Positions 8,185 to 56,861 of a DNA stretch of 64,000 nt are shown here, piece by piece. The position numbers and the translations under genes were made by a program. The notes under the pieces are model-generated. The model did not search any database. It saw nothing but the letters and a program-made list of their open reading frames with translations, and was not told where the DNA came from. Each line of letters starts with the position of its first letter. Position 1 is the stretch's first letter. This stretch comes from Leucoraja ocellata (Eukaryota), in contig JAWMAR010000030.1 in NCBI GenBank assembly GCA_036785375.1, forward strand, positions 1,302,001 through 1,366,000. Direction: 5' to 3'.

Positions 8185-8295
<111 letters not shown>

Positions 8296-15562: not shown

Positions 15563-15830
15563 GCGGATCGGCCTGGAGCCGCGGGTGGTGTGCGGGGCAG
15601 GAAGGTGAGCGCCGGCGGGGTCACGGTGGGGCGTTGGGGCGGAGGAGGGGTGGGGAGAGCCGGGCCTAACCTACCTACCGTGAGGGGGGGCCTGGGCCTG
15701 GGCCTACCGCCACTGCCGTCGTCACCGCATCCCGTCCCGTCCACAACCGGCTCCCGCGCCTGCGTCAGCGCCCGACCCAGGCATGCTGGGAGTTGGAGTC
15801 CATTACACTGCGCCTGCGCGTTCACCCTTC
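15563..15830 (-). promoter_or_regulatory. GC/CpG-rich promoter and probable non-coding exon 1 of CHUK
   Basis: The only strongly GC-rich, CpG-dense island near the gene. Minus-strand donor candidates CG|GTAGGT at 15678 and CG|GTAGGC at 15707. ZNF143/THAP11 SBS-like GCATGCTGGGAGTTGGAGT at 15781-15799. NRF1-like TGCGCCTGCGCG at 15809-15820. Confidence 0.75.
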
Positions 15831-15902
15831 AGTGAAACAATGCGTTTCGAGATGTCTTCACTTTGTATCTTTTGTTGTTGTACTTCGTCTGCACTTTGTA
15901 CG

Positions 15903-16455
15903 TCAAGTCAAGTCGCATTTATTTATATAGCACATTTAAAAAACAACTCTCGTTGGCCAAAGTGCTTTAAATGTGTTATTAGAATAGTACAACAAAAACA
16001 GACTACATTGCTAATGCTTTTTCTCAGGGTAACCAATTTGTTTGGAAAGATATAGGTTATTAGTATATAAGTTATAATGTTATTTGATCCACATTTCATA
16101 CCAGTTGGTGACGGTAATGCACTAAAATGTTGTTTGCCAACCGCCAAAAAAAACGACATAGAAGAAGAACAGACTACATCATGCAGCCTTCACTCAGTGG
16201 ACGTCAGGAAAGGCTTGGGAGTATAGATAAGTCTTTAGTCTCGACTTAAAAGAGTCGATGGAGGGGGCAGTTATGATGGGAAGAGGGATGCTGTTCCACA
16301 GCCTGGGTGCTGCAACCGCAAAGGCGCGGTCGTCCCTGAGCTTATGCCTAGACAGTGGGATATTCAGCAACCCCAAGTCGGCCGATCTGAGGGGCCTGGA
16401 GGTGGAGTGGTGGGTGAGAAGACTTTTTATGTAGGTGGGGGCAAGCCCATTGAGG
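15903..16455 (-). mobile_element. L2-clade LINE 3' fragment
   Basis: ORF 16194..16376 reads DRAFAVAAPRLWNSIP...SIDSFKSRLKTYLY; L2-type tail ...GTGCTATATAAATAAATGCGACTTGACTTGAC on the minus strand. Confidence 0.8.
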
Positions 16456-17719
16456 TTACATAAACGTTGTTACAGTTTAATGTGTGTATGTCTTCGGTTT
16501 AAACCAGCATCTGCAGTTCCTTCCTACACAATAGGAACAGCAGATGCTGGTTTAAACCGAAGACATACACACAACAAGCTGGAGTAACTCAACGGGACAC
16601 GCAGCATCTCTGGGGAGAAGGAATGGGTGACGTTTCGGGTCGAGACCCGTTGCTGTCAATCTTCGTTGTAAACCAGTATCTACAGTATCTAAAGTTCCTT
16701 ACAGAAACGTTGCCCATTTCCTTGCTCCACAGATGCTGCACCCGCTGAGTTTCTCCAGCTTTTTTGTGTACCTTCGATTTTCCAGCATCTGCAGTTCCTT
16801 CTTACACTCTACAGTTCCTATTGATGCTTTTCGTCATCTCGTTCATGTTTTGACCAAAGGAAGGAACTGCAGATGCTGGTTTACTCATTCATGCAGGGGT
16901 TTACTTTTTTTTAAAAAAGAACAATTGCAAAATCAGCAGAAGGGTGAACATGCACAAAACACTGTTCAGCAGCCCATTATGAGAAATACAAATCGGCTTT
17001 TCTTACTATTATTGCCCTTCAGGATTATTTAAAAAAACAAGACTTTCAAATAAGATTTTCATCATATGTACCTATCCGTATTTGTACAGGTGGCAATAGG
17101 CTTGACGATGTATAATTTGCCTAATATTGTTTCGATCGACGACAAAACAAAGCTTGGAAATAAGAAAAGGGCGTCAGGCAAAAATGATGCCTGCGAGACT
17201 GAAATACTGAGAGGATACTTTATAGACTGCAGATGCTGGAAGCTGGAGCAACGCAAAAATTGTTCCGGGAACGTCAGCGGGCAGCATCTGTGGAGGTAAA
17301 AAGGTAGTCGATGTTTTGGGCTAAGATTCTGCATCAGGAGATCGTTCAGTTATATTGCTCATAGAATCCATTACAATGTTGGCTTCTGTCAGCTGAACTA
17401 GCACAAATCAACTCTGCACAAAGTGCTGGTGGAACAATGCGTCAGCAGCATTTGTGGAGGGAATGGACAGGCGATATAGTTTTTAGTTAGGACCCTTCAC
17501 ACCCTGTCAATCTCTCTGCCTGATGTATTTTCGAACATTATAATTATGGCGACACTATTGTAACATCGATAACGTGCCCTCCAGACCAATTGTAGTTATA
17601 ATGCTATGTCTTGCTTACCTTTCAATATCTAGGTGAGTGGAAACAATGTTGTATAGTAGCAATACTCCACGAATGTTTCATCTTTATGTATCAATAGAGT
17701 ATCTCTCATATGTGCAGGA

Positions 17720-17925
17720 AAAAACTGCAGATGGTTCAAATCGAAGGTAGACACAGAATGCTGGAGTAACTCGGCGGGACAGGTAGCATCTCTGGAGAAA
17801 AGTAATGGGTGACGTTTCGGGTCGATACCCTTCTTCAGACTGATCCGAAACGTCACCCATCCCTTCTCTCCAGAGATGCTGCCTGTCCCGGCTGAGTTAC
17901 TTCAGCATTTTGTGTCTACCTCCGA
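17720..17925. mobile_element. Inverted (foldback) pair of Penelope-type pLTR remnants
   Basis: 17745-17820 is the near reverse complement of 17845-17920. An intact hammerhead-like core lies on the minus strand at 17809-17840. Confidence 0.65.
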
Positions 17926-18619
17926 GTATTTTTCACTTGCTGTTACATAGGACCCGTCCCTCAGTAGCCTGTGGTAGTACTATCTGGGTTGCAGTCCTTT
18001 CCCTCAGAGTGCGGTGCGGTGCCGTGACAACAAACAAACCCCTCGCTGGACCTTCTTGGTAAACAGTTACGGAGTCAGACATAGGTAGGAAAGTCTCTTT
18101 AGCCCAATTCGACCTTAACGACCAAGATGCCTTTTCTCAGAGAGTTTCATTTGTTTCAGACCCTTTAAAACTTTTCTATCTATCCGCCTGTCCAAATGTA
18201 TTTCAAATGTTGTTGCTGTTAAAGAAAGGAAGACAACTGTCTCATCCGCACCTCAGCCAACTCAAGTGTAAGCTGCGATTGGTGAGGGGGCAGCAGCTGT
18301 GCGTTAAAGGTGATGATCTGATCTGGCGGGCTTTTTTCATGGGGCAAGGAAGTTTAAAAATTAGAGGGGACTGGTTGAGGCAAAAGAAGAAAGGATTAAT
18401 GTGCAAATCTGTAATATATATTTCTTAAATTAAAAAAAAAAGATGTTATGCATAAAACACATAATACAGGAGATAAATATGTTACATGAATACATAACTG
18501 TGTCATCAAATCAATATGTTCAATTTACAAAGCCCATTAATACTGAGATATGTTGACAACATATAAGGCTCCTGACAACGAACATTTTATTTCTGAATAA
18601 CAATGATAAGATTAATGTA

Positions 18620-21600
18620 GAAATTATATTTTACTCAACGTTTTTTTTAAATTCAAGTATTTTTCAATCGAGGTGTTTGATTACTCGACGTGTCTTTACT
18701 CGGGGTAGTTTTATAGTCGATGTGGGTTTATTTAACTTGTGGGACTTTTTACTCGAGGTGTGTTTTTTAGTCGAGGCGGGCTTTTTATTCGTTTTTTTTT
18801 AATCGAGGTATATTTTGTAACGGTGAGTTTTTTTTAACTCGAGGTGTGATTTTTACTTGGGGCGGGCTTTTTACTCGTTTATATATACTCCCCAGGTATA
18901 TTTTGTAATTCGGTGGGATTTTTACTCGAGATGTGTATTAAAATAATTTTAACTCGTCAGAGTCGAGGTTATTTTTTCACTCGTCGTGGGATATTTTATT
19001 CTAGGTGCTTTTTTTTTTACTCGAGATGAGTTTTTTTTACTTGAGGCCGGCTCTTAAACTCGTTTCTTTTGATCGAGGTTTCTCTGCTTTTTTACTCAAA
19101 GTGTGATTTTTAGTTGAGGTGTGTTTTTAATCGAGGCGAGCTTTTTACTCCTGTTATTTTTTAATAGAAGAATAATTTTAGGCTTTTAATCTTTCCTCCC
19201 GAGATGTGTTTTTTGTTTAAACTCTTTTTTAGTCGAGGCGGGCTATTTACTCGTTTTTGTATTGAATATAACTCGGTGGTATTTTTACTCGAGGTGTGAT
19301 ATTTAACTGGGCGTGTTTTTTCTATAGTTTTTTAAGTCGAGGTGGGCATTTTACTCGTGGTTTCCTTTAGCTCGAGGTATTTTAACTCGGTATGCTTTTA
19401 ACGTGTGTTTTTACTCCAGACGGGCTTTTTTATTCGAGATGTATTTTTTTAATCAAGGCGGGCATTTTAATTATGGTTTCTTTTAACTCGAGCTGTGCTT
19501 TTTGCTCGTTTTTTTCACTCGTTAGTTGTTTTACCAATGGTGTTTCTGTTGCTGGGCGGTGGTTGTTTAATCAGGTGCAAAGAGGGTGTTTAGGCGGGCT
19601 GCTTGTTTACTGGAGCAGGTTGTTTACATAACGGGTTGTCCACTCCAGCTGTACTTGCGACGCGCGCCGGCTTCGAGAACTTTCTCCGCCTCGGTTTCCC
19701 GCTCAAAAAACTGTTCTTGCTAATTGGACGAAGCCCGAAGTCCGATCAGCGCTGGCGGCGAGTGCAGCGAGTGTTTAAAAGGCGGACGGGACCGGCTCTC
19801 ACCTCCAGTCACAGAGCCGCTCTGGTGAAGACACGTCGTGGTCACCAGCTCCCATTGCTAGCCCATGTACCTCGTTGGTTATTCTTGGTTTTTCGTGGTA
19901 GGTTTTATTTTTAAATATGTGATTTTTATTCCAGTTAAGTGTTTTACGTTAGGCGGGCTTTTTACTCGAGAAATTTTTTTTAAACACGGTGAGAATTTCA
20001 AGGTGTGATTTTTAGTCGAGGCGGCTTTTTTACGTGATTTTTTTTTCCCCCTCAAGATATTTTTTTTTTTGTCGAAGCCAGCTTTGTACTGGAGATGGAC
20101 GTTTGCTGAGTCAAGTCGGGCTTTTTGGTCGTGCTTTTTTAACCCACGGTATTAAAAACAACATTTTGCTATGTGTTTTGTAACTCAATGTACTTTTTAC
20201 TCGGGGCTTGTTTCTCAGTAAAAGGTGGGAATTTGACTCGTTAGTTGTGACTCGGGGCGTGTGTTTTTTTTTTAACTCAAGATGGGTTTTTTAACTCGAT
20301 GTGATTTTTTTTAAAGTCTTTGTTTATTATATTCCTAATTTATTTTACTCGGTGTGTTGTTTACCTCAAGGGTTTTTTTTTTAGTCGTGATGTTGTTTTT
20401 AGTCGATGCGAGCTTTCTTTACTGGTGATTTCTATTGATTCTACATACGTTTTTAACTCGTGTGTTTTTACTCGACCTGTGCTTTCCCCTCGAGTTGGTT
20501 GTTTTACTCGAGGAGTTTTTGTAAGTCGAGTCAGGTGGGTGTTTACTGGATCAGGTTGTTTACATAACGGGTTGTCCACTCGAGCTGTACTTGAGACGCG
20601 CGCAGGCTTCGGAAACTTTCTCCGCCTCGGTTTCCCGCTCAAAAAACCTCTTGTTAATTGGACGAAGTCCGATCAGCGCTGGCGGCGGGTGCAGCGAGTG
20701 TTTAAAGGCGGACGGGTCCGGCTCTCACCTCCAGTCACAGAGCCGCTCTGGTGAAGACACATCGTGGTCGCCAGCTCCCATTGCTAGCCCATGTACCTCG
20801 TTGGTTATTCTTGTTTTTTCGTGGTATGTTTTATTTTTAACTGCGCTTTTTATTCCATTTAAGTGTTTTACTTTAGGCGGGCTTTTTATTCGAGATAAAG
20901 ATATGTTTTTTTTTTTAACACGGCAGGAATTTTATTCGAGGTGTGATTTTTAGTCGAGGCGGCTTTTTTACGTGATTTTTTTTTTCCTCAAGATGGGTTT
21001 TTTTTTGTCGAAGCCAGCTTTGTACTGGAGATGGGCGTTTGCCGAGTCGAGGCGGGCTTTTTACTCGTGCTTTTTTTTAACCCACGGTTTAAAAAACAAC
21101 CGTTTTGCTATGTGTTTTGTAACTCAATGTACTTATTACCCGAGGCTTATTTCTCAGTAAAAGGTGGGGCTCGTTCTTTGTGACTCGGGGCGTGTGTTTT
21201 TTAACTCAAGATGTGCTTTTTTAAAATATTTGTTTATTTTATCTAATTTATTTTACACGGTGTGTTTACCTCGAGGGCTTTTTTTTTAGTCGTGATGTGT
21301 TTTTTTTTAGTCGAGGCGAGCTTTCTTTACTGGTGATTTCTATTTATTCGTTTTTTAGTCGACCTGTGCTTTCTTCTCAAGTTGGCTGTTTTACTTGAGA
21401 AGTTTTTGTAAGTTGAGTCTGGTAGGTGTTTAGGCGGGGCAGGTTGTGTACTGGAGCAGGTTGTTTACATGAGGGGCTGTCCGCTAGTGCTGTGTTTATG
21501 GCGGGGCAGGTTGTTTACACGAGGGGCTGTCCGCTAGTGCTGCACCTGTGGCGGGGCGGTTTGTGTACTGGAGCAGGTTGTTTACATTAGGGGTTGTCCA

Positions 21601-22490
21601 CTAGTGCTGTATTTATGGCGGGGCAGGTTGTTTACACGAGGGGCTGTCCGCTAGTGCTGCACCTGTGGCGGGCGCGGGCTTCGTCGACAGCGGAAACTTT
21701 CTCCGCTTCGGGTTCCCGCTCAAAAATCTCCTCTGGTTCATTAGACGAAGCCCGTCGACCGATCAGAGTTGAATGCTCTTGTTTTTACTCGAGGTATACA
21801 TTGTTTTTTAACTCTATTTTCATTTTACTTGAGTTTAGGCTGTGTTACTTGAGAAGTTACTCCTTAAAAAAAAAAAAAATCCAAGATATGTATTTTTAAC
21901 GCGAGTTTTTTTTTAAACTGGTTTATAGTCGAGGCCGGCCTTTTACTCGAGATGGGTTTTTTGGTCAAGGCGAGCTTTTTACTCTAACTGGAGTTTAAAA
22001 TTATTTTTTACTCGGTATAATTTTTACTCGGTGTTGTAACTCGATGTATTTGAAGTTTTTTTGACGAGGTGTTTGGGGGAAGGGGGGGGGGGGGTGCTCG
22101 CCCATGTTACACACTGGTTACTCTGGTTTTTAATTACATGAATAGGGTTTTTTAACCTCGATGTGCACGTTTTTACTCCAGTTTTTTTTTACTTTAACTT
22201 AACTTTTTAACTGGCTTTTTACTCGTTTTATTTACTTGGGGTATGTTTTTTTTTATCGGTGGGATTTTTATTTAAAGTGTGAAGCAGTTTTAACATTTTT
22301 TTACCTCAGATTATCTTTTTAAGTCAGGGCGGGCTTTTTACTTGTGAATTTTTCCAGCTATTTATTGGAGATGGATGTTTGCTTAGTTGAGGTGGGGTTT
22401 TTACTCGTGCTCTTGCGTTTTTTAATTTGATGTGTGCTTTTTTTTCTCTCAAGGTGTGTTTTGGTCGAGGTGGACTTTTAACTCGTGAGG
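18620..22490. repeat. Degenerate T-rich tandem array (TTTTACTCGAGG / TTTTAGTCGAGGCGGGC motifs) containing a ~935-bp tandem duplication
   Basis: Dozens of T-run + (AC/AG)TCGAGG motifs. Matching anchors at 19626/20562, 20154/21091 and 20211/21151 give a period of about 930-940 bp. Confidence 0.85.
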
Positions 22491-23128
22491 ATGTGAATCT
22501 GTGCACAGTCCGTGCCATGAGCCACCATTTTACCCGAAGACATTGGCGTGTCTGTATACCTAACCCGCCTGGTCCAACCATAGCTCTTGAAAGAGCCAGC
22601 GAAGGTAAGGTGCAGGAATAAGCCCTTGGGGGCCCATTGGCAGTGGACAGTCCTCACTTGAGGCTGCCAAACATGGTGAGTATGATAACTGTGTTGATGG
22701 GTGTGTTACAAGGGAACCGGTTCAAGGGTCTGACTAGTAGACCAGAAAAAGGCTCTCTCATCTGTTTATTTACAAATCAGATTTATTGGCAAGAGAGAAC
22801 AAACACAATACTTGTCTTGGTATGCGCGAGTCTGTTTTACAGCAGCACACCTCTCTGCCTCCGTCTGTGGCGCTGATTGTGACAGCCTGTTGGTGAGCTT
22901 ACGTGTACATGAACTAACTTATGGCTTTCTGGCATCTGCCTTTATACAGGTAAAAAATCAGCTGTTGAAATAACCACCAGCAAGTCCTGGTCAATGGTGC
23001 TGCTCCCATATTCAAACTATAACTAATGGCAGTGGACTGCATCTCAGCAAGCCCTGCCCCTCCCTCCTTTGGGAACAAAGTGCTATCAGCTGCAGACTGG
23101 CACGTAAAGCAATACATGTAGCGCTAAA

Positions 23129-24270
23129 GACTTGGTGCGTAAATCAATGCAGAGCTACCGACTTGGTGGACAAATCAATGCACAGAGCTGCAAACATGGT
23201 GTACAAATCAATGCACAGAGCTACAAACTTGGTGTACAAATCAATGCACAGTTACAAACGGTGTGCAAATCAATGCACAGAGCTACAAACTTGGTGTACA
23301 AATCAATGCACAGAGCTACAGACTTGGTGCGCAAATCAATGCACAGAGCTACAAACTTGGTGTGCAAATCAATGCACAGTTACGAACTTGGTGTGCAAAT
23401 TAATGCACAGCTACAGACTTGGTGTACAAATCAATGCACAGTTACAGACTTGGTGTACAAATTAATGCACAGAGCTACAGACTTGGTGCGCAAATCAATG
23501 CACAGTTACAAACTTGGTGTGCAAATCAATGCACAGAGCTACAGACTTGGTGTACAAATCAATGCACAGTTACAGACTTGGTGTACAAATTAATGCACAG
23601 AGCTACAAACGGTGTACAATTCAATGCACAGTTACGAACTTGGTGCGCAAATCAATGCACAGAGCTACAGATTTGGTGTACAAATTAATGCACAGACTTG
23701 GTGTGCAAATTAATGCACAGTTACGAACTTGGTGCGCAAATTAATGCACAGCTACAGACTTGGTGTACAAATTAATGCACAGAGCTACAGACTTGGTGTA
23801 CAAATCAATTCACAGAACTACTAACTTGGTGCACAAATCAATGCACAGAGCTACAGACTTGATGTACAAATCAATGCACAGGGCTGCAAACTTGGTGCGC
23901 AAATCAATGCACAGAGCTGCAAACCTGGTGTACAAATCCATACACACAGAGCTAAAGACGGCAGCTCAAATCAATTCACACAGCGATACAGACTTGGTGT
24001 GTAAAGGTAATACACGGCACTGCCAGTTTGGTGTGCAAAGGTTTAAACAATGCTGTCGGCTTAACCCTCAGAAATTTAAACAAAGAGCTATTGGCTGCAT
24101 TGCTTTGGGTTCTAAATATAGCGTTACTAGCCACAGCACATTGGGCTTTAAACACAACGCTATGGTACAAACTTGGTGTGCAAATAAATGCACAGTTACA
24201 AACTTGGTGTGCAAATAAATGCACAGAGCTACAGACTTGGTGCGTAAAGGTAATACACGGTTCTGCCAGT
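23129..24270. repeat. 31/33-bp minisatellite (about 25-30 units)
   Basis: Units ACTTGGTGTACAAATCAATGCACAGAGCTACAG (33 bp) and ...GCACAGTTACAG (31 bp) are interspersed; the array degenerates after ~23950. Confidence 0.93.
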
Positions 24271-27200
24271 GAATAACGTTTTTTTGTTTCCTCTGGGTAT
24301 GTGAGTACTCGGGGAAAATGACAATAAAGATATACTATGGGTCAGTGACTTCAGGCGAAATTCTTGTATAATGGAGTTATGGTGAATTCCTGTGCTAATA
24401 GCGATGGATCAAATGTCTTCAGTAGCTAAAAGCTGCTTCTTTTCAATGGCTGATGGTAATTTTTTTACTTGTGTGAATTTTAGTCAAAGCCAGCTATTTA
24501 TTGAAGATTGGTGTTTGCTTATTCGAGGTGGGCATTTTATTTGTGCTTTTTTAAACATTTTACTCTTTCTCGAGATTTTTTAGTCGAGGCGGACTTTTTA
24601 CTGGTGAGGACACAACTCTGCGCACCGTTCAATCTGCGAGTCGCCATCATACCCAAAGACATTGACACGTCTACAAGCTTATCCCATCTGGTCTAACTGT
24701 AGGTCTTGAAAGAGCCACCAAAGGTAAGGTGCAGGAATAGCCTTATAGCCCGTTGGCAGGAGATCGTGATCACCTGAGGCCGTGTAAAGAATCGTGTTTG
24801 TGTTGATGAATGTAATGATGAATTCCTGTGCTAATAGACGATGGATCAAGTGTCTTCAGTTGCTCAAAACTTTTTTTTTTTTTTGCAATGACTGATGATA
24901 ATTTTGACATTGGGACGAGCATCATATAAAACCAGCGAATATCTGACAATGAAATTTCTCCTTGCCAGGGATGGGAACCCCCACCAGCGACTCAATACTA
25001 CGTGAAAGAGATACCTAATGGAAAGAAAAGATCCATCCAGGAAAAACGAAGAGCAAGAGCAGAAAATTGAAGCACACTTTTTACAAATGGTTTGTTTTGC
25101 TCTGTGTTTTTGAAAACTATTTAGTCAGGGGCTGGTTGTTTACACGAGGGGTTGTCCACTCGTGTTGTACTTGCTGGGAGTGCGGGCTTCGTCTACAGCA
25201 GAAACTTTCTCAGATTTGGTTTCCTGCTCAAAAATCCATTCATGCTGATTGGACGCAGTCCGAGATCTGACCAGCGTAGGGGGCCGGGTGCTGCAAGAGC
25301 CGCATGTCCACAGGGAGTTCTGCAGTTCCAAGATCGCTCTGACAGGACTGCAGCGCCAGATCTCATTGCTCCCCATTTGGTCCAGTGCTTCCAGCAATCC
25401 AACAAATTGCTCCTTCCACTCCCACAAGCGGGTGACCACTCTGTAATTTAATTATCTTTATTGGAGGGAAAAAAAATTACAGTATCTGATGTATGGCATT
25501 ACATTTCCCTCCATTTTGTTTTTTATAAATAATAATTAAAAAAAAAAAACCCTAACCCGCCCTCCCTAAACACCCCTTGGCAGCTAATGTTTTCACAATA
25601 CAAGTATATCACAAAATCAAATGCACATTTTAACAATAATAAAGTAACAAAACAGAATAAAGGTGGCTCCCCACTTACTGTCAAGTGCCCTCAGTCAATA
25701 GGTGGTTCTTTTAGACCGTTAAAGTATGATAAAAAGGGTTCCCATTTCAAATAACTTTTTCACAGACCCCCTCAATGTGAATTTAATCTTTTCTCGCCTT
25801 AAAAAAAACATCACGTCTTCCAGCCAAGCAGCGGCAGATGGAGGAGAGGTAGATTTCCAGACCAGCAAGATTTTCCTACGGGCCAAAAGTGATGTAAATG
25901 TAATGATATCAGACTGGGTTGTGTTTAAACCCAAGGTTTTATCTGCTACACCAAATACAGCTACAAGCGGGCAAGGTCTCACTGTCATCCCATGGACTTC
26001 ACTGATGGTTTTAAAAACCACTGCCCAGTAGTTACCAAGTTTGGGAGCAAGACCAGAATGCATGAGCTAGATTGGCTGGAGAGAAGGAGCTCCTGTCACA
26101 GCCAGCATCTGTCCCTGGACATATGTCAGCAAGCCTGGCTTTGCTTAAGTGAACCCTGTGTAAAACTTTAAATTGTGTGAGCCCCAATCTAGCACATGAT
26201 GGTGAGGAATGGACTCTTTTCAGTGTTTCTGTCCAGCATTCCTCAGGCAGATCTATTCCAAGGTCGTTCTCCCACCTAGCTTTAACTTTGTTCAGGTTTT
26301 GATCTCCTAAAGACATCAGTTGAGAATATACTACAGAGATCAGTCCTTTATTTGCAAAGGTAAGAGTGAGTTTATCCAACACTGTGACAGGAGGGAGATC
26401 AGGACAAGAAGGACATTTTCATGGCAAAGTGATGGACCTGAAGATATTTAAAGAAATGATAATGTGAGAGGCCATGTTTTTTGTGTAGGTTATCAAAACT
26501 ATCAAATATGTTGTTGGTGTATAAATCCTTAATGCACATATGACCATTCAAACCCCACTGTCTAAAGGTTGAGTCAAGTGTAGAGGGGGGAAATAAATGG
26601 TTACTGTGAATGGGACCCAGAACTGAAGCTGATGTAAACTTATAATGGCAACGAAATTGGTTAAAAATGTTGACGGTGGATAGTACAACAGGGTTGGATG
26701 TAAATCGAGAGTGTTTCAATGGCAGGGAGGAATATACTAAAGCTGGGAAAGACGAGGAGTAACAAGACTGACTCGAGTAGACACCAGTCTGTATCTGGTC
26801 GGTGGAGCCAGAATAATATCTTTTGGATATTGGATGCCCAGTAATAATGAATAAAGCTAGGATGGCCCAGTCCACCTACTTCACGACCTCTTTGGAGAGT
26901 GTACTTATTGACCCTTGGAACCTTGTTACCCCATATAAAGGAGGTTATAGATTGGTTAACTGAGTTAAAAAATCACTTGGATAGGAAAACTGACAAACAT
27001 TGGAACAAGTAAAGAAATCTGGGAAGTACAGTCATCTTCACTGACTGCACTCTCCCAGCCATAGTGAGAAGCAGACTACGCCATCTCTCAAAAGTCAGCC
27101 TTCATTTGGCCAAATTGAGGCATATAGTTAGCTGCAAACAGGGATGTGAAAGAGGGTAATGTGTGTTCCTAGATATACAAAACCTTCTTGAGATATGGGA

Positions 27201-27859
27201 AAGGGCAGGCATTCCTGTCGGTTCTGTAGGGCAAGGTTGATGGGAAAGCATTCGCTTTTTTGGAGGTTTAGTTTATAGCCAGAGAAAGTTCCAAACTGAT
27301 CTAACAAGGACACAATTGCAGGCCCACTGGCTGTAGGGTCGTTCACATAGAGAAGGAGGTCATATAGAGACACACGATGTTCCCTGTTTCCTCTCCTAAT
27401 GCCCTGGAATAATGTGGTTGACCTAAGTGCAATAGAGAGACTCAATTGCAATCGCAAAAAGAAGCGGAGACAAAGGGCATCCTTGATGAGTGCCACGTGT
27501 TAATGGAAAATTATCAGATTGTAAATAATTTGTTTGTATACATGCTAAGGGTGAATGATATAATAGCTTAACCCAGGCCACAAATTTTTTTTGCCGAATC
27601 TAAATATCTCCAAGACTCTGAACAAATATGGCCACTCCACTCGATCGAATGCCTTCTCCGCGTCCAAAGAGATAACAACATCTGGCCGCGAAGAAGCACC
27701 GGGTGAATAGACCACACTGGCCAGTCGGCGGATATTAGAAAAGGAATGACGATTTTTAATGAAACCTGTTTGATCTTCTGAGATTATTTTGGGAAGTTGG
27801 CATTCTAAACTCCTTCGCCAAAATTTTTACATCTACATTCAAAAGTGAGATTGGGCGGT

Positions 27860-28328
27860 ATAGAAAATAGGTGCAGGAGTAGGCCATTTGGCCCTTCGAG
27901 CCTGCACTGCCATTCAATATGATCATGGCTGATCATCCAACTCGGTATCCTGTACCTGCCTTCTCTCCATAGCCCCTGATCCCTTTAGCCACAAGGGCCA
28001 CATCTAACTCCCTCTTAAATATAGCCAATGAACTGGCCTCGACTACCTTCTGTGGCAGAGAATTCCAGAGATTCACCACCCTCTGTGTGAAAAATGTTTT
28101 CCTCCTCTTGGTCCTAAAAGATTTCCCCCTTATCCTTAAACTGTAACCCCTTGTTCTGGACTTCCCCAACATCGGGAACAATCTTCCTGCATCTAGCCTG
28201 TCCAACCCCTTAAGAATTTTGTAAGTTTCTATAAGATCCCCCTCGATCTTCTAAATTCTAGCGAGTACAAACCGAGCCTATCCAGTCTTTCTTCATATGA
28301 AAGTCCTGACATCCCAGGAATGTCTGGT
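27860..28328 (-). mobile_element. CR1 LINE 3' fragment nested in L1
   Basis: ORF 27933..28205 (FFTQRVVNLWNSLPQ...GIRGYGEKAG). It splits the L1 RT just before YRPISL. Confidence 0.9.
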
Positions 28329-28617
28329 TTCCATTATGATCCACATTGTCAGATCCTTGTCTTTTTTTAAGGAGGTTAAATAGTTGCCTGTGAAAGGGTG
28401 AGGGGCAATGAACCTTTTTCCAAAGATTCTTGAAATATTTCTAAAAGAACAGGTGTGAGCTTATCCTTAAATTTCTTATAGAAGTCTATAAGCCGTCATT
28501 ATCCAGGGTTTTACCACTCTGCATCGCCATAATGGCATTATTAATCTCTTCCTGCCCAAGAGCTTGGTCTAGATCTTCTGCCTCTTCTAATTCCAGAGTG
28601 GGTATTTTCAAATCATC

Positions 28618-30830
28618 AGAAACAATGGTTTTGAACTTAAAGAAAGGTAACTTTGAGGGTATGAGACGTAAATTGGCCAAGATTGACTGGCAATTAATTC
28701 TAAAAGGGTTGACGGTGGATATGCAATGGAAGACATTTAAAGACTGCATGGATGAACTACAAAAATTGTTCATCCCAGTTTGGAAAAAGAATAAATCAGG
28801 GAAGGTAGTGCATCTGTGGATAACAAGGGAAATCGGGGATAGTATCAAAGCAAAGGATGATGCAACAAACTAGCCAGAAAAAGTAGCGTACCGGAGGACT
28901 GGGAGAAATTCAGAGACCAGCAGAGGAGGACGAAGGGCTTAATTAGGAAAGGAAAAATGGATTATGAAAGAAAACTGGCAGGGAACATAAAAACTGACTG
29001 CAAAAGTTTTTATAGATATGTGAAAAGAAAGAGATTAGTTAAAACAAATGTAGGTCCCTTGCAGTCAGAAACAGGTGAGTTGATCATGGGGAACCAGGAT
29101 ATGGCGGACCAATTGAATAACTACTTTGGTTCCGTCTTCACAAAGGAAGACATAAATAATCTGCCGGAAATAGCAGGGGCCCGCGGGTCAAAGGAGTTGG
29201 AGGAATTGAGTGAAATCCAGGTTAGTCGGGAAGTGGTGTTGGGTAAATTGAATGGATTAAAGGCCGATAAATCCCCAGGGCCAGATAGGCTGCATCCCAG
29301 AGTACTTAAGGAAGTAGCTCCAGAAATAGTGGATGCATTAGTAATAATCTTTCAAAACTCTTTAGATTCTGGAGTAGTTCCAGAGGATTGGCGGGTAGCA
29401 AACGTAACCCCACTTTTTAAGAAGGGAGGGAGAGAGAATTACAGACCAGTTAGTCTAACATCGGTAGTGGGGAAACTGCTAGAGTCAGTTATTAAAGATA
29501 GGATAGCAGCACATTTGGAAAGTGGTGAAATCATTGGACAAAGTTAGCATGGATTTACGAAAGGTAAATCATGTCTGACGAATCTTATAGAATTTTTCGA
29601 GGATGTAACTAGTAGCGTGGATAGGGGAGAACCAGTGGATGTGGTGTATCTGGACTTCCAGAAGGCTTTCGACAAGGTCCCACATAAGAAATTAGTATAC
29701 AAACTTAAAGCACACAGCATTGTGGGTTCAGTATTGATGTGGATAGAGAACTGGCTGGCAAACAGGAAGCAAAGAGTAGGAGTAAACGGGTACTTTTCAC
29801 AATGGCAGGCAGTGACTAGTGGGGTACCGCAAGGCTCAGTGCTGGGACCCCAGCTATTTACAATATATATTAATGATCTGGATGAGGGGATTGAAGGCAA
29901 TATCTCCAAGTTTGCGGATGACACTAAGCTGGGGGGCAGTGTTAGCTGTGAGGAGGATGCTAGGAGACTGCAAAGTGACTTGGATAGGCTGGGTGAGTGG
30001 GCAAATGTTTGGCAGATGCAGTATAATGTGGATAAATGTGAGGTTATCCATTTTGGTGGCAAAAACGGGAAAGCAGACTATTATCTAAATGGTGGCCGAT
30101 TGGGAAAGGGGGAGATGCAGCGAGACCTGGGTGTCATGGTACACCAGTCATTGAAGGTAGGCATGCAGGTGCAGCAGGCAGTAAAGTAAGCGAATGGTAT
30201 GTTGGCTTTCATAGCAAGAGGATTTGAGTATAGGAGCAGGGAGGTTCTATTGCAGTTGTACAGGGTCTTGGTGAGACCACACCTGGAGTATTGCGTGCAG
30301 TTTTGGTCTCCAAATCTGAGGAAGGACATTATTGCCATAGAGGGAGTGCAGAGAAGGTTCACCAGACTGATTCCTGGGATGTCTTATGAAGAAAGACTGG
30401 ATAGACTTGGTTTATATTCTCTAGAATTTAGGAGATTGAGAGGGGATTTTATAGAAACTTACAAAATTCTTAAGGGGTTGGATAGGCTAGATGCAGGAAG
30501 ATTGTTCCCGATGTTGGGGAAGTCCAGGACAAGGGGGTCACAGCTTAAGGATCAGGGGGAAATCCTTTAAAACCGAGATGAGGAGAACTTTTTTCACACG
30601 GAGTGGTGAATCTCTGGAACTCTCTGCCACAGAGGGTAGTTGAGGCCAGTTCATTGGCTATATTTAAGAGGGAGTTAGATGTGGCCCTTGCGGCTAAGGG
30701 GATCAGAGGGTATGGAGAGAAGGCAGGTACGGGATACTGAGTTGGATGATCAGCCATGATCATATTGAATGGCGGTGCAGGCTCGAAGGGCCGAATGGCC
30801 TACTCCTGCACCTAATTTCTATGTTTCTAT
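28618..30830 (+). mobile_element. 5'-truncated CR1 LINE (RT) nested in L1
   Basis: ORFs 28957..29547, 29617..30189 and 30199..30570 contain [32 protein letters not shown] and FADDTKL; TTTCTATG tail. The L1 reading EHFLD|DLKIPTL rejoins across the insertion. Confidence 0.95.
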
Positions 30831-31213
30831 CTAAGAAATGTTCCATATTCATTGTATCCAAGGGGAATCCTGAGGTGTAAAGAGAAGAATAAAAGGCTGT
30901 GAAAGTATTGTTTATTTGTTTTGGATTGCTTGTTATGTCTTGGTGTATGTTATCTGAGGAGTAAGTCGTGATGGGGATTGACGCTTCAGCTGCTGAGCCA
31001 CAAGCCGGCTCGCCTTATCACCCTATTCATACTAAAGACCACGAGTTCTAAGAATTACTTCTGTTTGATTAGTAGATAGAAGAGTAAATTTCGTTTGTAA
31101 ATCAGCACGGCTTTTATATAGTTGGGCGGTGGGTGCTTCAGAATATTGCCTATCCAGAGCCAAGATGGATTGTAACGGGGTTTGCATTTCCTTTTTACGT
31201 TCTTTATTGGCAT

Positions 31214-34045: not shown

Positions 34046-34065
34046 CAATGTGGTTCAAGAAACTG

Positions 34066-43545: not shown

Positions 43546-43839
43546 TCAGGAAACTGATGGTTGATGGGGAAATGTTGTTCTTGAACCTGGGAAGAACGAT
43601 TGTTGGGCTGCTGAACCCTGCAAGTGTAATTCAGGCCAGTTTTGATCTTCAGGCTGGGTAGAAAGTCATAATTTATCTAGCTGCATTGCAAAGTGAGGAA
43701 TAGGCCTTTATTTGATTAAATTGTTGAAGGCTGTTTGGCCATCTAGGGGTGAGAAAGGCTGGCAATGCCATCCAATAGAGGACTTGGCGGCTGAGGGCAG
43801 GCGGGTGGGTGCCAGAGAGTAGATAAAGAAGAGGAGCAT

Positions 43840-46800
43840 GTGCAATGGTAAGTACAACAAATGCTGAAAATGACACCTGAAAACCAAGGGATCTCTGGTA
43901 ATGAAGCCAATCTTGTCAGAGGACAAACACCCCATCCAAGTCAACACTAGACAAGAGGAGGAAATGACCGAGCAGGAAACATACATGGGAGGAACAGCAG
44001 CATCAGAACCCTACTGCGTATTGTCTCTGGGAAAACCAAGACATCACAACTGACCGGAAGTAGCAGGAGCTAACGACGATTGAGAACCGGTCTCCTCTTT
44101 GCAGTGTCATTGGATTCACCATCAAGGCAAAGCCAGAAGAAAGATGTCAAATAGCCTGACCAGCTCTGGGAAGACTCTGCTAGCAAGACAGAATCTCCAG
44201 GAATGATGCATCTTTTTGACTGAAGATGGAGTCATCACCAAATCAACACTGAACCAAAGAAAGCACCAGTGATGACTAGAAGGAAAAGACCCAGCGAGGA
44301 CCAAACAGGAGAGCATGAGCATCATGACTGACGCTGCTTGTTGGTGGGAAACAAGCGAAGAGGTTGAAGAGGACAAGGTATGCCATCCAAGAGAGGATTC
44401 GGCAGCTGAAGACGGGCCCGCGGTGGGTACCGGAGGTTGGATGAAGACAGGCCCTCGGTGGGTGCTGGAGGTCGGGGAGAAGACGACGAGGTGCAATTGC
44501 CAATGGAACCTACGTCAAATGCTGAAATCAACACCTGAAAGCCAAGGGATCTCTGGTAATGAAGCCTATCCTTGTCACAGAATCCACACCCAAGTCAACA
44601 CTGGATAAAATGAGGAAGGAACATATAGGGGAGGAACAGGAGCTTCGGAACCCGACTACGGATTGTCACTGGGAAAACCAAGGCATCACAATTCACCAGA
44701 AGTAGCTGGAGCAAACGACACTTGAGAACCGGTCTCCTCTTTGCAGTGTCATTGGATTCATCATCAGGGCAAAGCCAGAAGAAAGATGTCAAATCGACTG
44801 ACCAGCTCTAGGAGGACTCTGCTAGCAGGGCAGATTCTCCAGAAATCGTACATCTATTTCCTTGAAGATGGAGCCATCACCAATTCAACACAGGACAGAA
44901 CCCACACCCAAATCAACACTGGATAAAATGAGGGAGGAACAGGAGCATCAGAACCGTACTATGAATTGTCTCTGGGAAAACCAAGGCATCACAACTGACC
45001 TGAAGTAGCTGAATCTAACGACGATTGTAAACCAAGCTGGTCTCTTTGCAGTGTCATTGGATTCACCATCAGGACAAAGCCAGAAAGATGTCAAACAGCA
45101 TAACCAGCTATGGAAGGACTCGGCTAGCAAGACAGAATCTCCAGGAATGATGTATCTTTGCCTGAAGATGGAACCATCACCAATTCAACACTGAAGAAGT
45201 GAAAGCACCAGTGATGACGAGAAGGAAAAGACCCAGCCAGGACCAAACAGGAGATCAACAGCATCATAACTGACACTGCTTGTTGGTGGGAAACACAAGT
45301 GAAGAGGTTAAAGAGGAGAAGGTATGCTGTCCAAGAGAGGATTCGGCAGCTGAAGACGGGCCCGCGGTGGGTTCTGGAGGTTGGACGAAGACGAAGACGA
45401 GCAAGTGGTGGTTACGACAGCGGAAATCCAAGGGATCTCTAGTAATGAAGCCTATCGATGTCAGCAGACAGAACCCACACCCAAATCAACACTGGATAAA
45501 ATGAGGAAGGAACATACAGGAGCATCAGAACACTACTATGGATTGTCTCTGGGAAAACCAAGGCATCATAACTGACCAGAAGTAGCTGGAGCTAACGACG
45601 ATTGTGAACCAAGTTGGTTTCTTAGCAGTGTCATTGGATTCACCATCAGGACAAAGCCAGAATGATGTCAAATAGCATGACCAGCTATTGAAGGACTCTG
45701 CTAGCAAGACAGAATCTCCAGGAATGATGTATCTTTGCCTGAAGATGAAGCCATCACCAATTCAACACTGAAGAAGTGAAAGCACCAGTGATGACGAGAA
45801 GGAAAAGACCCAGCCAGGACCAAACAGGAGTTTATCAGTATCATAACTGACGCTGCTTGTTGGTGGGAAGCACAAGTGAGTATGTTAAAGAGAGCAAGGT
45901 CGTCCAAGAGAGGAATTGGCACCTGAAGACGAGCCTGCGGTGGGTGTTGGACGTCGGAGAGAAGACAGGCCCTCGGTGGGTGTTGGAGGTTGGACCAAGA
46001 AGAGGAGCAAGCGGAAAAGTTACGATAAATGACCTACTTTCGTCACCCAAGCAAGACGGTTATGGAACGAGGAAGATGGATGGGGCTGTCCAAGTGAGGA
46101 CTTGGCAGCTGAACACGGGCCCGCAGTGGGTGTTGGACGTCGGAGAGAAGACAGGCCCTCGGTGGGTGCCGGAGGTCAGGGAGAAGATGATGAGGAGCAA
46201 GTGCCAATGGAACCTACGCCAAATGCACAAAGCAACAACTGAAAGCCAAGGGATCTCTGGCAATGAAGCCCATCCTTGTCACATAATCCACACCCAAGCC
46301 AACACTGGATAAAATGAGGAAGGAACATACAGGAGCATCAGAACCCTATTATGGATTGTCTCTGGGAAAACCAAGGCATCACAACTGACCAGAAGTAGCT
46401 GGAGCTAACGACGATTGAGAACCAAGACGGTGTCATTTGAATTCACCATCGGGGCAAAGCCAGAAAGATGTCAAATAGCCTGCTAGCAAGACAGAATCTC
46501 AGGGAATGATGCACCTTTGCCTGAAAATGGAGCCATCACCAATTCAACACTGAAGAAGTGAAAGCACCAGTGATGACGAGAAGGAAAAGACCCAGCCGGG
46601 ACCAAACAGGAGTTCATCAGCATCATAACTGACAGTGCTGTTGGTGGGTAACATAAGCGAGGATGTTATAGCAAGGTGTGCCTTCCAAGAGAGGATTCGG
46701 CAGCTGAAGACGGGCCCTTGGTGGATGCCGGATGTTGGACCAAGAAGAGGAGCAAGCGGCAAAGAGTTACGACAAATGACCTACTTTCGTCCCCCAAGCA

Positions 46801-48935
46801 AGACGGTTAAGGAGCGAGGAAGACGGATGATGGTGTCCAGGTGAGGACTTGTCAGCTGAAGCAGGGCCCGCGGTGGGTACGGGAGGTTGGATGAAGACAG
46901 CCCCTCGGTGGGTGTTGGAGGTCGGAGAGAAGACGACGAGGAGCAAGTGCCAATGGTAGTTACGTCAAATGCTGAAAGCAACACCTGAAAGCCAAGGGAT
47001 CTCTGGTAATGAAGCCTATCCTTGTCACAGAATCCACACCCAAGTCAACACTGGATAAAATGAGAAAGGAACATACAGGAGAGGAACAGGAGCATCAGAA
47101 CCCAACTATGGATTGGCTCTGGGAAAACCAAGGCATCACAACTGACCAGAAGTAGATGGAGCTAACGACAATTGAGAACCAAGCTGGTCTCTTTGCAGTG
47201 TAATTGGATTCACCATCAGGGCAAAGCCAGAAAGATGTCAAATAGCCTGACCAGCTATTGAAGGACTGCTATCAAGACAATCCCCAGGAATGATGCATCT
47301 TTGCCTGAAGATGGAGCCATCACCAATTCAACTGAAGAAGTGAAAGCACCAGTGATGACGAGAAGGAAAAGACCCATCCAGGACCAAACAGGAGATCATG
47401 AACATCATAACTGACACTGCTTGTTGGTTGGAAACACAAGCGAGGAAGTTAACAAAAGCAAGATGTGCCGTCCAAGAGAGGAATCGCCAGCTGAAGATGG
47501 GCCCTCGGTGGGTGCCGGATGTTGGACGAAGATGCAGAGGAGCAAGTGCCAATGGTAGTTACGACATGCAGAACGTGACAGCGGAAAGCCAAGGGATCTC
47601 TGGTAATGAAGCCTATCCTTGTCACAGGACAGAAGCCACACCCAGCTCAACAGTGGACACAATGAGGGAGGAACAGGAGCATCAGAACTATGGATTGGCT
47701 CTCGGAATGCCAAGGCATCACAACTGACCAGAAGTAGATGGAGCTAACGGCGATTGTGAACCAAGCTGGTTTCTTTGCAGTGTCATTGGATTCACCATCA
47801 GGACAAAGCCAGAAAGATGTCAAATAGCCTGACCGGCTATGGAAGGACTCTGCTAGCAAGACAGAATCTCCAGGAATGATGCACCTTTGCCTGAAGATGG
47901 AGCCATCACCAATTCAACACTGAAGACGACGAGGAGCAAGTGCCAATGGTACCTACGTCAAACGCTGAAATCAACACCTGAAAGCCAAGGGATCTCTGGT
48001 AATGAAGCCTATCCTTGTCACAGAATCCACACCCAAGTCAACACTGGATAAAATGAGGAAGGAACATATAGGGGAGGAACAGGAGCTTCAGAACCCTACT
48101 ATGTATTGTCACTGGGAAAACGAAGGCATCACAATTCACCAGAAGTAGCTGGAGCAAACGACACTTGAGAACCGGTCTCCTCTTTGCAGTGTCATTGGAT
48201 TCATCATCAGGACAAAGTCAGAAGAAAGATGTCAAATCGACTGACCAGCTCTGGGAGGACTCTGCTAGCAGGGCAGATTCTCCAGAAATCGTACATCTAT
48301 TTCCTTGAAGATGGAGCCATCACCAATTCAACACTGAAGAAGTGAAAGCACCAGTGATGACGAGAAGGAAAAGACCCAGCCAGGACCAAACAGGAGATCA
48401 TGAGCATCATAACTAACACTGCTTGTTGGTTGGAAACACAAGCGAGGATGTTAAAGGGCGCAAGGTGTGCCATCCAAGAGAGGAATAGCCAGCTGAAGAC
48501 GGGCCCGCGGTGGGTGCTAGAGGTCGGAGAGAAGACAAAGAGGAGCAAGTGTCAATGGTACCTACGTCAAACGCTGAAAACAACACCTGAAAGCCAAGGG
48601 ATCTCTGGTAATGAAGCTTATCTTTGTCAGCGGACAGAACCCACACACAAATCAACACTGGACAAAACGAGGAAGGAACATACAGGAGCATCAGAACCCT
48701 ACTATGGATTGTCTCTGGGAAAACTAAGGCATCACAACTGACCAGAAATAGCTGGAGTTAACGACGATTGAGAACCGGTCTCCTCTTTGCAGTGTCATTG
48801 GATTCATCATCAGGGCAAAGCCAGAAGAAAGATGTCAAATCAACTAACCAGTTCTGGGAGGACTCTGCTAGCAAGGTAGTATCTCTGGGAATGACGCATC
48901 TTTTTTTACCAATGAACGGAGCCCATACTGGTCAA
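43840..48935. repeat. Complex tandem macro-repeat, about 9 modular units of ~300-800 bp
   Basis: Anchor GTGTCATTGGATTCA (or close variant) recurs at ~44104, 44745, 45051, 45628, 46429, 47198, 47780, 48189 and 48792. Anchor CCAAGGGATCTCTGGTAATGAAGCC recurs 8 times. Purine-rich plus strand, no continuous ORF. Confidence 0.93.
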
Positions 48936-50172: not shown

Positions 50173-50363
50173 GAAAAACCCAGGATTACAAAAGAAGAAG
50201 AAACCCAGGATTACAAAAGTAGAAAAACCCAGGATTACAAAAGTAGAAAAACCCAGGATTACAAAAGTAGAAAAACCAAGGATTACAAAAGTTGAAAAAC
50301 CCAGGATTACAAAAGTTGAAAAACCCAGGATTACAAAAGTAGAAAAACCCAGGATTACAAAAG
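50173..50363. repeat. 24-bp minisatellite, about 8 copies
   Basis: Unit GAAAAACCCAGGATTACAAAAGTA/T. Confidence 0.93.
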
Positions 50364-52722: not shown

Positions 52723-52734
52723 GTTATGTTTGTT

Positions 52735-53125
52735 GGTGAGGCTTGGGACGTGGTTAGTTGTGCATGTGTGAATGGCGTTTGAGAAAACTGCTCACATCTA
52801 GTGCATTACCTTAGAAGCTTTAGATTTAACAGTGATTTATCTAAAACCGGAGGAAACAAAATTTGTTTGACTAAGTAGGTTCTGAAGATGTGGAGTTTTT
52901 AAGACATGCAGGAATTATGGCAAACATTAAAACAAAACTTTTGCCTCAAGATTTGCTTGAGCAGGTAGATAAGGAAGGAAAGAAGAGGCTCGGGTCGTTT
53001 GAAATCAAACAGCAATGTTTCCGTTTCATTGTGAGTGCTTTGGTTCTTGTTGACGAAGATGATCCATATATTGAACGTCGCTCAAAGGTGTGCTTTTCGG
53101 CTCTGCAATGTTGCAAAGAGAAAAA
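52735..53125 (+). mobile_element. Third, more diverged pogo/Tigger relic
   Basis: AWDVV...VNGV...EDDPYIERRSKVC, homologous to 33650-34040. Confidence 0.65.
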
Positions 53126-53237
53126 AAAAAAATAGAAGTCACCCAAACATCGCGAGGAAATCTGACATTTGGTAGCAACAAACCTGCCGTCGACATCTGC
53201 TATCTCCATATCTCACCCAACTGCTGCCTCAACCAAG

Positions 53238-53540
53238 CGTGGAACGGCAGAGTTGCTGCCTTACAGCACCAGAGACCCGGGTTCGATCCTGACTACGGGT
53301 GCTCTCTATGGAATTTGTTCATTCTCCCCGTGACTTGCGTTGGTTTTCTCTGAGATCATCCGTTAACTCCCACACTCAAGGTGTACTGGTTTATAGGTTA
53401 ATTGGGTACAGTAAAAATTATAAATTGCTCCTACTGTGTGTGATAGTGATAGTGTTAATGTGCGGGGATCGCTGTACAGTTATAGACTCGGTGAGCCGAA
53501 CGGCCTGTTTTTTTGTGTTGTATCTCTAAACTAAACTAAT
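53238..53540 (+). mobile_element. V-type SINE (HE1-like)
   Basis: B-box GGTTCGATCC, V-domain-like core, (CTAAA)n tail. Further copies at ~57905-58100 (-) and ~60285-60515 (+). Confidence 0.8.
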
Positions 53541-56084
53541 TCACTGACTCTCTTTGTGCCCATGCCCCCGGTCTCTGGCTCCGAGTTCACCAACGGATAC
53601 GGAGGACTCCCAGTAACCTTCCACCTCAACCTCCTTCTATGCTGTCTTGGGCAAGCAGAGATCACCAGTCGTCGATGTAAGTGTTAACATTTACATTCAA
53701 AAAGAGATTTTCAATTTACAATTATGTTTAATTTAGATGCCTTTACTGTTGATTTTGTTTTTAAACTTTTTTCTTTATTAAATATTGATGGACCCCTGCT
53801 CTCAGATCTTGGCTATCGTGGACCTTCTGTGGACCAATCTGCGCACTGACAGTTGCCGTCTTGCCCAAAGAGATCCAGAGCATCTGCAATGTACCCTCAC
53901 TCATTCCAACAAAACTTCTGGTAAGAGCTACCAAAAAGAGTAATTTATTCCACACTGATTATTTTAGAAATCACCAGAAAAACGTACTCCCCAAGTCTGC
54001 CATTTACATGTATTTTGTTTGAATGTCCTACTTCTCTATTTATAGTGCTTTGTGATAAAAGATGCAACATTTGGGCTGGGAATTTGAGCTTCAAGCTGGG
54101 TAGAAGGTTTCACACAACTTTACACAACATGGTTCATGTGAAACAATTGTACACAAGCTGACATTTTCTTGAAGATCTCAATTATGTAAATGCAAATTGC
54201 AGGCATCAAAGGTCTTTATTTTTCAGCTGGCCCCAGTCATTAAATGTCAAGGAACTGTACACAGTAATTTAGAGCCACAGGAATCTGCAGATGCTGGAAT
54301 CTTGATCAAAAGAAATGTGTTGCTCAATGGGTGATGCAAACCTCTATGGAAGAAATGGCCAGCCAACATTGTGGGTTGTGACCCTTCTTCAGTCTGTTAG
54401 TCTAGCACTAGCAGGGGATATTACAGGTAAATTTGAACAAGAAATAGCAAATAATGGAAATAAAAAAACAAAATGCTGGAAATTTCACCCCATCAGGAAA
54501 CATCAATAAAGAGAGAAACATTATAATGAAAGTTAATTAAAGAACAATCCCTAATATTTTGAGATGTCTTTCATGAAATCTGTTGCTTCAGTAGATTTGT
54601 GCTCGGTGAACGCATGACTTTAAGAACCGAACTGAGTTTTTTAACTGGCTGCATCTGATATTTTACGTGAGCAAGACCAGGCCATCTTTTTGTCACTAGA
54701 TGGTGCCAGAGTCTGTCTTTCCATAGCAATGATCTATTATGTTTATAATTGTACACCAGTTAACAATAATTTGTAAAGATTGTAAAGATAATTTCTATGC
54801 TGCATGCAGCATAGAAATAGGCCCTTTGGCCCAACTTAACCCTGTCAACCAAGATGACCCATCTAAAATAGTCTCATTACTTGCGTTTGGTTCCTATCCC
54901 TCTAAACGTTTTCTATCCATGTACCTGTCCAAGTAGCTTTGAAATGTTGTTATTGTCCCTCAACTACTTTCCCTGGCTGCTCGTATTTATACCATCCACT
55001 CTCTAAGTGGACAAACTTGTCCCTCAGTTCCCTATAGCTTTTTCCCCTTTCACCTGGACAGGTACATGCATTGGAAAGGTTTAGCGGGATATGGGCCAAA
55101 TGCAAGCAAACTGGACTAGTTGAGATGGGGCATCTTGGTCAGCACAGACTAGTTGGACTGAAGGCCATGTTTCCAATCTGTATGACTGACTATGAAGTGT
55201 ATTTCTTGATGATCTTACCCTGGTAAAAAGACTCCATACATTAATTATTGAACCAACATTGCGATTCTTTGAAATTAGAAACAAAATGCTTTACTGCAAA
55301 TGAGATCTATAATTTACACAAGGACCATTCTTAGTCACGTGTGTGACCAAAAAAATATGAAAAATTGTGGGAATACATCTCTTCTAATTCTGAAAGCATT
55401 ACAGGTATATTGTTTCATACTGTATATATGATTTTTTTTTTGAAAGTTTATCAAGAGAAATGTTTGTTATGCTGACAATGTTTGTTCAGGGTCAGAGGTC
55501 AAACATGACTGGTCACATGTGTGATCTCACACGGAAGCATTTTTTTCATAACTCAGTTTTATCTTTCAAACTGAATTTTAAAAAAAGCTAGAATGTTCAT
55601 ATCTTTAGCAGACATGCATTATAGGTCTGTCGGTAGGAAAACAACAATGAATACGATTAATCATCTCTGAAAGAATTCTTTTAAATGTATCACTTTATGT
55701 GATGCCATCTGGTCACGTGTGTGTGTGACATTTTTGTTACACTTTTCAAAGAATGACCCATAAATTCTTCTACCTTTTACAGCTGGGTTCGATCCAGAGT
55801 ATGAAGTACTGCCCTACCCATTCGAGGTGGATGCCGTGTTGAAAATAACCTCAAGTATTCAGCAAGGAGTGGATGGATCCTGCTTCGTATTGCTCCCTCC
55901 AGCAAGATGGCGGTGGTACGCTTCATCCTCCAGATCACCACTACAGCAGTCGGCAGTACCATCGGGCAGATCATTATGATGATGGTAGCTCGAATCACCA
56001 AGACAATGGTCCAGGCATCCAATTTGTGCATTGACATAATTGAAACTACCTTATTGGGATAAAGGCACAGGATGGATTTAGATG

Positions 56085-56760: not shown

Positions 56761-56861
56761 CTTGTTTTGTGTGCCACAGTAAATGACTTCACAATGCCAT
56801 ATTATATCCCTTCTGTTATGTTCTGGCCCACACACTCAGCTTGTTTCTATCCCTTTAATAG

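Follow-up and report, generated by a model that had tools for sequence, protein, structure and literature searches.

A segmental duplication family with its source beside CHUK in Leucoraja ocellata and a retained core predicted to be a non-coding RNA gene

A duplication family and its source

We describe a segmental duplication family in the skate Leucoraja ocellata. Its source copy lies beside CHUK, the gene for IKK-alpha, in a stretch of 64,000 nucleotides (contig JAWMAR010000030.1, here C30, positions 1,302,001 to 1,366,000; hereafter the window). About 20 loci carry the family, and what they share is a 40-kb core. Judging from patterns in the sequence, we lean a little beyond even towards reading this core as a spliced non-coding RNA gene with a promoter of its own that is probably unmethylated in the germ line. 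An earlier note had proposed that the window holds a self-duplicated non-coding locus, head-to-head with CHUK, which makes either a long non-coding RNA (lncRNA) or PIWI-interacting RNAs (piRNAs). Its observation is partly confirmed here and its interpretation partly supported. Positions are those of the window, and a plus sign marks source positions beyond it.

A search of the skate's own genome with four window modules found each of them on many contigs, in the order and orientation of the window. A marker that occurs once per unit (55783-56050) has 40 matches on 30 contigs, from 41 candidates, and single-copy gene families mostly occur twice in the assembly; we therefore estimate about 20 loci per haploid set. 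Fifteen other copies were compared with the window, using 40-90 kb of sequence each. Module order is kept in 15/15: pieces of CHUK, a spacer, one to five promoter cassettes, exon-like units, a macro-repeat and 3′ units. The promoter tract and the macro-repeat are also present in all 15, unit A is absent from four copies and unit B from one. The CHUK introns are about 0.90 identical to those of the window, and the core 0.82-0.94. Self-BLAST of the window bears out the locally re-duplicated modules of the earlier note, but these are not the whole story, as the block recurs genome-wide, and the idea of a single locus-specific cluster fails with about 20 loci carrying it.

Three trees, one of the 5′ spacer and two of 3′ segments, concur in joining the window with C50, and C3 with C398 and C213 (and C306). 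C76 falls within the C3, C398 and C213 clade in all three trees, starred in two, and the remaining copies form a shallow burst. The macro-repeat is variable, with 12 anchors in the window and 13-57 in the other 15 copies.

Presumed alleles also vary. Macro-repeat anchors number 50 and 30 in C76 and C679, 28 and 21 in C50 and C354, and 12 and 11 in the window and C167; C76 and C679 have three and seven promoter cassettes. Mismatches between the window and C167 are about 2-2.6% in the core and 1.0-1.6% in the flanks. Several genes or core copies occur twice on each of C30, C123, C214, C377, C74, C400 and C17, the two being about 98% identical or scoring equally, and often inverted. A single contig may here combine two haplotypes, and such pairs were counted as alleles.

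The features that delimit the source block are as follows.

123..13948, minus strand: CHUK (IKK-alpha) kinase and ubiquitin-like exons, full-length only here and in the presumed allele
1913..1914: left end of the founding 155-kb block, inside a CHUK intron, fused to +157144 in daughters
15560..15900, minus strand: CHUK CpG promoter and 5′ untranslated region (5′-UTR) exon, with a motif at 15781-15800 that we take to be ZNF143-like
17000..18400: spacer common to most copies
57894..57938: where source-like sequence ends earliest on the right in the examined copies

The window is the source copy, because C30 and C167 are the only places with the scaffold-domain exons of CHUK, and CHUK at this locus has an ERLIN exon downstream of it. 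The CHUK exons translate cleanly here and have IKK-alpha as their top PDB match (E 6e-24), which confirms the minus-strand neighbour named by the earlier note. A second IKK gene lies on C33/C3146. Eight daughters were tested for CHUK, and in 6/6 that bear exons the pieces are incomplete or broken. We considered whether these truncated copies are kinase-only genes and rejected the idea: all six lack some exons or have shifts or stops.

The founding event

In six of 20 left flanks, +157144 (C30:1459144, beyond the window) is joined to about 1913 with a 2-nt TA overlap, an end-to-start junction that is absent from the source. Two of these joints changed afterwards, one through a deletion and the other through an insertion. 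Two copies with unlike flanks have exactly the same left end, 1911-1913, and the piece at 156.6 kb has nine full matches genome-wide, two of them from the source and seven from daughters. One presumed allele pair, C3/C699, starts at about 156.1 kb, continues across the joint and through the core, and stops at about 153.4 kb. Its order is thus permuted, and on a 155-kb circle its two ends would lie within 2.7 kb of each other.

The junction in six copies and the one circularly permuted copy point to a founding circle, and a 155-kb DNA circle is likely to have made the founding move. A tandem duplication that moved later could also have produced the junction; this alternative is weakened because it gives no reason to expect a copy so close to one unit in length. 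A 155-kb block that began inside CHUK and reached just beyond the exons of a Sec7-family gene was copied, its end becoming fused to its start, and we propose that it moved as a circle that reopened near +154 kb. C50 is a separate, later copy that spans 7145-61055.

Dispersed copies with internal tandem arrays and gene fragments could also be expected of a giant transposon, Helitron- or CACTA-like, that had captured pieces of CHUK. This explanation is largely refuted and we give it almost no credence. The ends are variable and pass over into adjoining source DNA, the left end that copies have in common is a junction they inherited, the ends lack inverted similarity, and the eight copies compared with the window share no long open reading frame (ORF) with it. 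Neither fixed termini nor a transposase or its relic (pogo, CACTA, Helitron) was found in the copies; for the ‘pogo relic’ of the earlier note, 9/9 frames tested over 42500-43621 gave 0 Pfam families. That note had named an ordinary dispersed transposon as the case that would overturn it, and the copies do not behave like one, since their ends differ and extend into CHUK introns and downstream source DNA.

Retention of the core

Match counts along the source are highest in the core. To its left, 7 were counted at 5.8 kb and 16 at 13.8 kb; the core itself has 40, at 55.8 kb; to its right there are at least 17 at 64.2 kb (counted from 40 of 4317 candidates), 2 at 110 kb, 4 at 139 kb and 9 at 156.6 kb. 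All 16 matches to CHUK exon 1 adjoin a core. The shortest shared interval begins with the promoter tract and extends as far as about 57.9 kb, which is 1.2 kb beyond a poly(A) signal, AATAAA. Later copies have lost their flanks and retained the 40-kb core from promoter to poly(A) signal. The region outlined by the earlier note is part of this unit, which continues beyond 54100, where the note had ended it, to about 57900. Daughters were re-duplicated repeatedly, losing CHUK and Sec7 pieces and retaining the stretch from CpG tract to poly(A) signal, with the promoter cassettes and macro-repeat expanding or contracting in each copy.

A CpG-rich tract at the start of the core

18400..22400, plus strand: T-rich, CpG-rich promoter-like tract of 18-bp units and cassettes
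19604-19900, 20540-20830 and 21620-21770, plus strand: promoter cassettes with motifs that we take to be FOX-, E2F- and CCAAT-like
25128..25440, plus strand: decayed body copy of a promoter cassette, CpG observed/expected ratio (o/e) 0.71

The tract is AT-rich, yet its CpG o/e is 0.93-1.25 in 16/16 copies, with 0.37-0.55 downstream. Counted per sequence across copies, the ratio of CpG to non-CpG transitions is 0.6-0.9 over 18400-21500 and 2.0 at the tract end (21500-22400); it is 1.4 in the spacer and 2.2-5.9 in the body, the CHUK introns and the flank. In vertebrates, CpG sites that do not decay are those unmethylated in the germ line. As CpG transitions are not raised in the tract, the part from 18.4 to 21.5 kb is likely germline-unmethylated. 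Such a tract, if open in germ cells, would drive a plus-strand transcript.

The tract ratio is 0.9 in seven copies without a detected CHUK 5′-UTR or first coding exon. The ZNF143-like motif is present at 15781, as the earlier note had it. It was found in only 4/15 other copies, so the unit does not depend on a bidirectional CHUK/ZNF143 promoter. The cassette motifs are kept in 29-32 of 39 cassettes. Body copies of the cassette have the E2F-like motif in 0/6 cases, all six being of one origin. At the donor of the first cassette (window 19898), six aligned copies are divided into three with GT and three with GC, the GC form standing in a strong donor context.

A predicted spliced transcript

22454..22676, plus strand: exon-like unit A, donors 22605 and 22676; second copy with donor 24724
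32989..33259, plus strand: exon-like unit B copy 1, acceptor AG kept 16/16
42500..42768, plus strand: exon-like unit B copy 2, donor GT kept 22/22, no Pfam or protein match
53585..53920, plus strand: exon-like units F1 (donor 53677) and F2 (53806-53920, donor 53921), separated by a 129-bp intron-like gap
55783..56770, plus strand: predicted last exon with AATAAA at 56745, containing the once-per-unit marker

Splice dinucleotides are invariant at eight sites, each in 13-27 aligned copies. The donor GT of unit A is kept in 27/27 and 15/15 aligned copies, the GT, AG and GT of F1 and F2 in 16/16, and the last exon retains its AG in 13/13 and its AATAAA in 12/12. The plus-strand donors listed in the earlier note all read GT (7/7).

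Does the core encode a protein? The ratio of non-synonymous to synonymous changes is not significantly below 1 in any of the six frames of 10 exon-like or ORF segments, and no long ORF is common to eight copies and the window, in agreement with the absence of host coding sequence in the earlier note. Protein searches with the macro-repeat ORF, unit F2 and unit B gave no match, and the Atlas matches were all under 0.8. Rfam returned six weak matches, all far below the gathering score, and a 90-nt hairpin scan, run without a shuffle control, showed no clear stem like that of a microRNA precursor in its best 12 windows. Because the core has a CpG-protected promoter of its own, retained splice sites and poly(A) signal, and no coding selection, we predict a plus-strand spliced non-coding unit, for which the support is indirect.

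A fast-evolving or recently dead protein-coding family is a very improbable alternative. The frame through F1, F2 and the last exon is open in several copies; that of F2 is open in 11/16, with an 18-nt indel, and several F1 indels are multiples of three. Stops or shifts in 5/16 copies speak against this, as do the missing synonymous excess, the lack of a start context in the frame and the lack of a protein match. F1 and F2 had also suggested a transmembrane protein with an immunoreceptor tyrosine-based inhibitory motif, which we rejected: the hydrophobic stretch is a translated pyrimidine tract behind the tail of a short interspersed nuclear element, the sole Pfam hint is LST1 (E 0.023, under the cut-off), and coding selection is absent.

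Several results weigh against a spliced RNA gene with an open promoter of its own. The eight invariant sites were partly picked after seeing the alignments, and five other candidates are not invariant. In an unbiased scan, consensus donors on the plus strand were invariant in 7/15 cases against a background of 237/946 (p=0.06), plus-strand and minus-strand donors compared at p=0.31, and acceptors gave no signal (6/22 against 12/33). The exon-like units are conserved at 0.82-0.90 and the introns at 0.88-0.94, so the former are no better kept, and one of five minus-strand control hexamers is kept as well as AATAAA. Substitutions show no significant strand asymmetry in the core (A>G/T>C 1.12, p=0.19) and none in the CHUK control either; the value on the window branch is 1.61 (p=0.011), which is one of 72 tests. 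Finally, CpG changes were counted per sequence and not per event, with four copies forming one young clade, and of two copies examined singly, on few sites, C50 has a tract ratio of 0.48 and C76 alone reaches 2.45.

The core may survive through selection for its RNA, or through the properties of an open, repeat-rich core itself. In the second case the core would be a selfish or neutral duplication driver, whose open CpG tract and recombining arrays seed copying, with RNA as a by-product. Core divergence as fast as that of the CHUK introns, the null strand asymmetry and the loss of internal units from some copies all suit this explanation. We consider it quite improbable nevertheless, given several invariant splice sites and a kept interval that takes in promoter and poly(A) signal, stops shortly after the latter and is not centred on one array.

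Retroelements and the piRNA question

25500..42480: nest of long interspersed nuclear elements (LINEs), CR1- and L1-like pieces, mostly private to the window copy and its sister

Fragments of transposable elements (TEs) in antisense are typically enriched in piRNA clusters that act as TE traps. The 6:2 orientation of LINEs reported by the earlier note is confirmed, with six minus-strand and three plus-strand pieces at 26-41 kb, two of the latter being one split element. Across the family this does not hold. Retroelement coding pieces, from a library made of the sequences analysed here, cover 23.4% of the window core and a median of 4.3% of 15 other cores. Their orientation, with shared insertions included in the counts, is 26 sense to 18 antisense in those cores and 37 to 33 outside cores. 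The LINE nest and its antisense bias are features of the window copy only. Antisense enrichment is missing elsewhere, and the TE-trap idea is therefore weakened and does not describe the family.

A different kind of piRNA locus has to be weighed as well. The copies could be precursor loci in which long transcripts from a germline promoter are processed into piRNAs, with paralogues and arrays as mutual targets. Segmental duplications are over-represented at the pachytene piRNA loci of mammals (PMC9925758), and conserved pachytene clusters have first exons of at least 10 kb and methylated promoters of low or intermediate CG content (PMC7782496). The family resembles these clusters in being non-coding, duplication-associated and structurally variable (PMC9925758, PMC7782496); array length is strongly unlike in presumed alleles, and the tract is likely to be open in the germ line. 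It differs in its high-CpG, protected promoter, short predicted exons and multi-locus nature. The CpG o/e, at about 1.1, is not that of a low- or intermediate-CG promoter in any of 16 copies, and the kept donors, 3 kb from the promoter, suggest short exons, where a pachytene-type locus would have a first exon of at least 10 kb or no splicing. Few retroelement pieces and no antisense bias across copies add to this, and we judge the piRNA reading unlikely.

Relation to known systems

The family works like a core duplicon, but is not a member of that class. It is comparable with the primate LCR16a/NPIP duplicons (PMC7419210) in a core of tens of kb at many interspersed copies, variable flanks with gene fragments, a repeat-variable body and long serial duplication. 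A shared core is found at 40 matches on 30 contigs with its order kept in 15/15, and the flanks hold 5′ pieces of CHUK and intron pieces of the Sec7 gene to varying extent. Little non-source sequence is common to the copies within the 40-90 kb examined. The protein family that marks such duplicons is the feature that fails, as neither a core-encoded family nor positive selection was found here. In addition, the flanks examined all derive from one source block rather than from many donors, and the host is not a primate.

For the founding event, the closest likeness is the duplication of vasa in Nile tilapia through a circular intermediate, for which PMC3245284 uses permuted order as the signature and also cites cattle KIT. 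Both cases share an end-to-start junction, a permuted daughter order and retained introns. The skate event is larger, at 155 kb against about 28 kb, and was followed by expansion to about 20 loci in which a non-coding core was kept and the genes were lost.

Why does a core stay while its flanks turn over? Core duplicons have been described from primates, with protein families. Here one assembly brings together the source copy, its founding junction and about 20 daughter copies that range in age, and the kept interval matches a predicted non-coding transcription unit, so that a selected RNA can be tested against a selfish driver. A bolder proposal, which we put forward tentatively and think less likely to be right than wrong, is that of a non-primate core duplicon with a germline gene for a non-coding RNA or for piRNAs as its core. 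It would have been born beside CHUK and launched by a 155-kb circle. The dosage of its RNA, tuned by hypervariable cassettes and macro-repeat, would be either selected or the driver of its own spread, and would explain why about 20 loci have kept it. At the level of titles and opening parts of abstracts, in a search that covered few subscription journals, we found no description of a CHUK-linked segmental duplication, a skate multicopy lncRNA, or a core duplicon family of fish or sharks.

Other features of the window and its copies

On C30 the gene order is an ERLIN-like exon, CHUK, the core and a Sec7-family gene, with BLOC1S2 1.6 Mb away; the sites for this order are window 4534-4746 (minus strand), C30:1453567-1453692 (plus strand), and C30:2978889 and 3408200. 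We take the Sec7-family gene to be PSD-like, and the core presumably sits at a rearrangement point relative to the human gene order. No CwfJ gene adjoins the window locus, and a same-chromosome test found none of the CwfJ, CutC and SUFU families on the copy-bearing contigs. The possibility that the core is a relic of CWF19L1 was dropped, as the matches were to short repeats only.

A tandem scan and self-comparison of the window found the macro-repeat and tandem arrays of 18, 50-117, 33 and 24 bp, which bears out the modules and arrays of the earlier note.

23123..24242, plus strand: 33-bp tandem array, of differing length among copies
43615..48905, plus strand: unit C (donor 43848) and macro-repeat array, monomer mostly 600-950 bp
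49851-50170 and 51193-51446, plus strand: degenerate macro-repeat monomers
50173..50363, plus strand: 24-bp tandem array, from the tandem scan

A 70-bp array of six units lies inside CHUK intron 1 (window 15151-15562). In the copies on C35, C469, C115 and C74, unit B is followed by an extra short-period tandem array that the window does not have. A young BEL/Pao-like long terminal repeat element with long open frames stands antisense inside the macro-repeat of C226 and C14, the two being 97.6% alike.

Exon-like units A, B, E and F2 share an old common origin, with z 5.8-12.7 against F2, from which we conclude that the core grew by ancient internal duplication. The homologous positions are 22480-22620, 24590-24740, 42490-42785, 50440-50605 and 53795-53935 of the window, and the donors are not all homologously placed.

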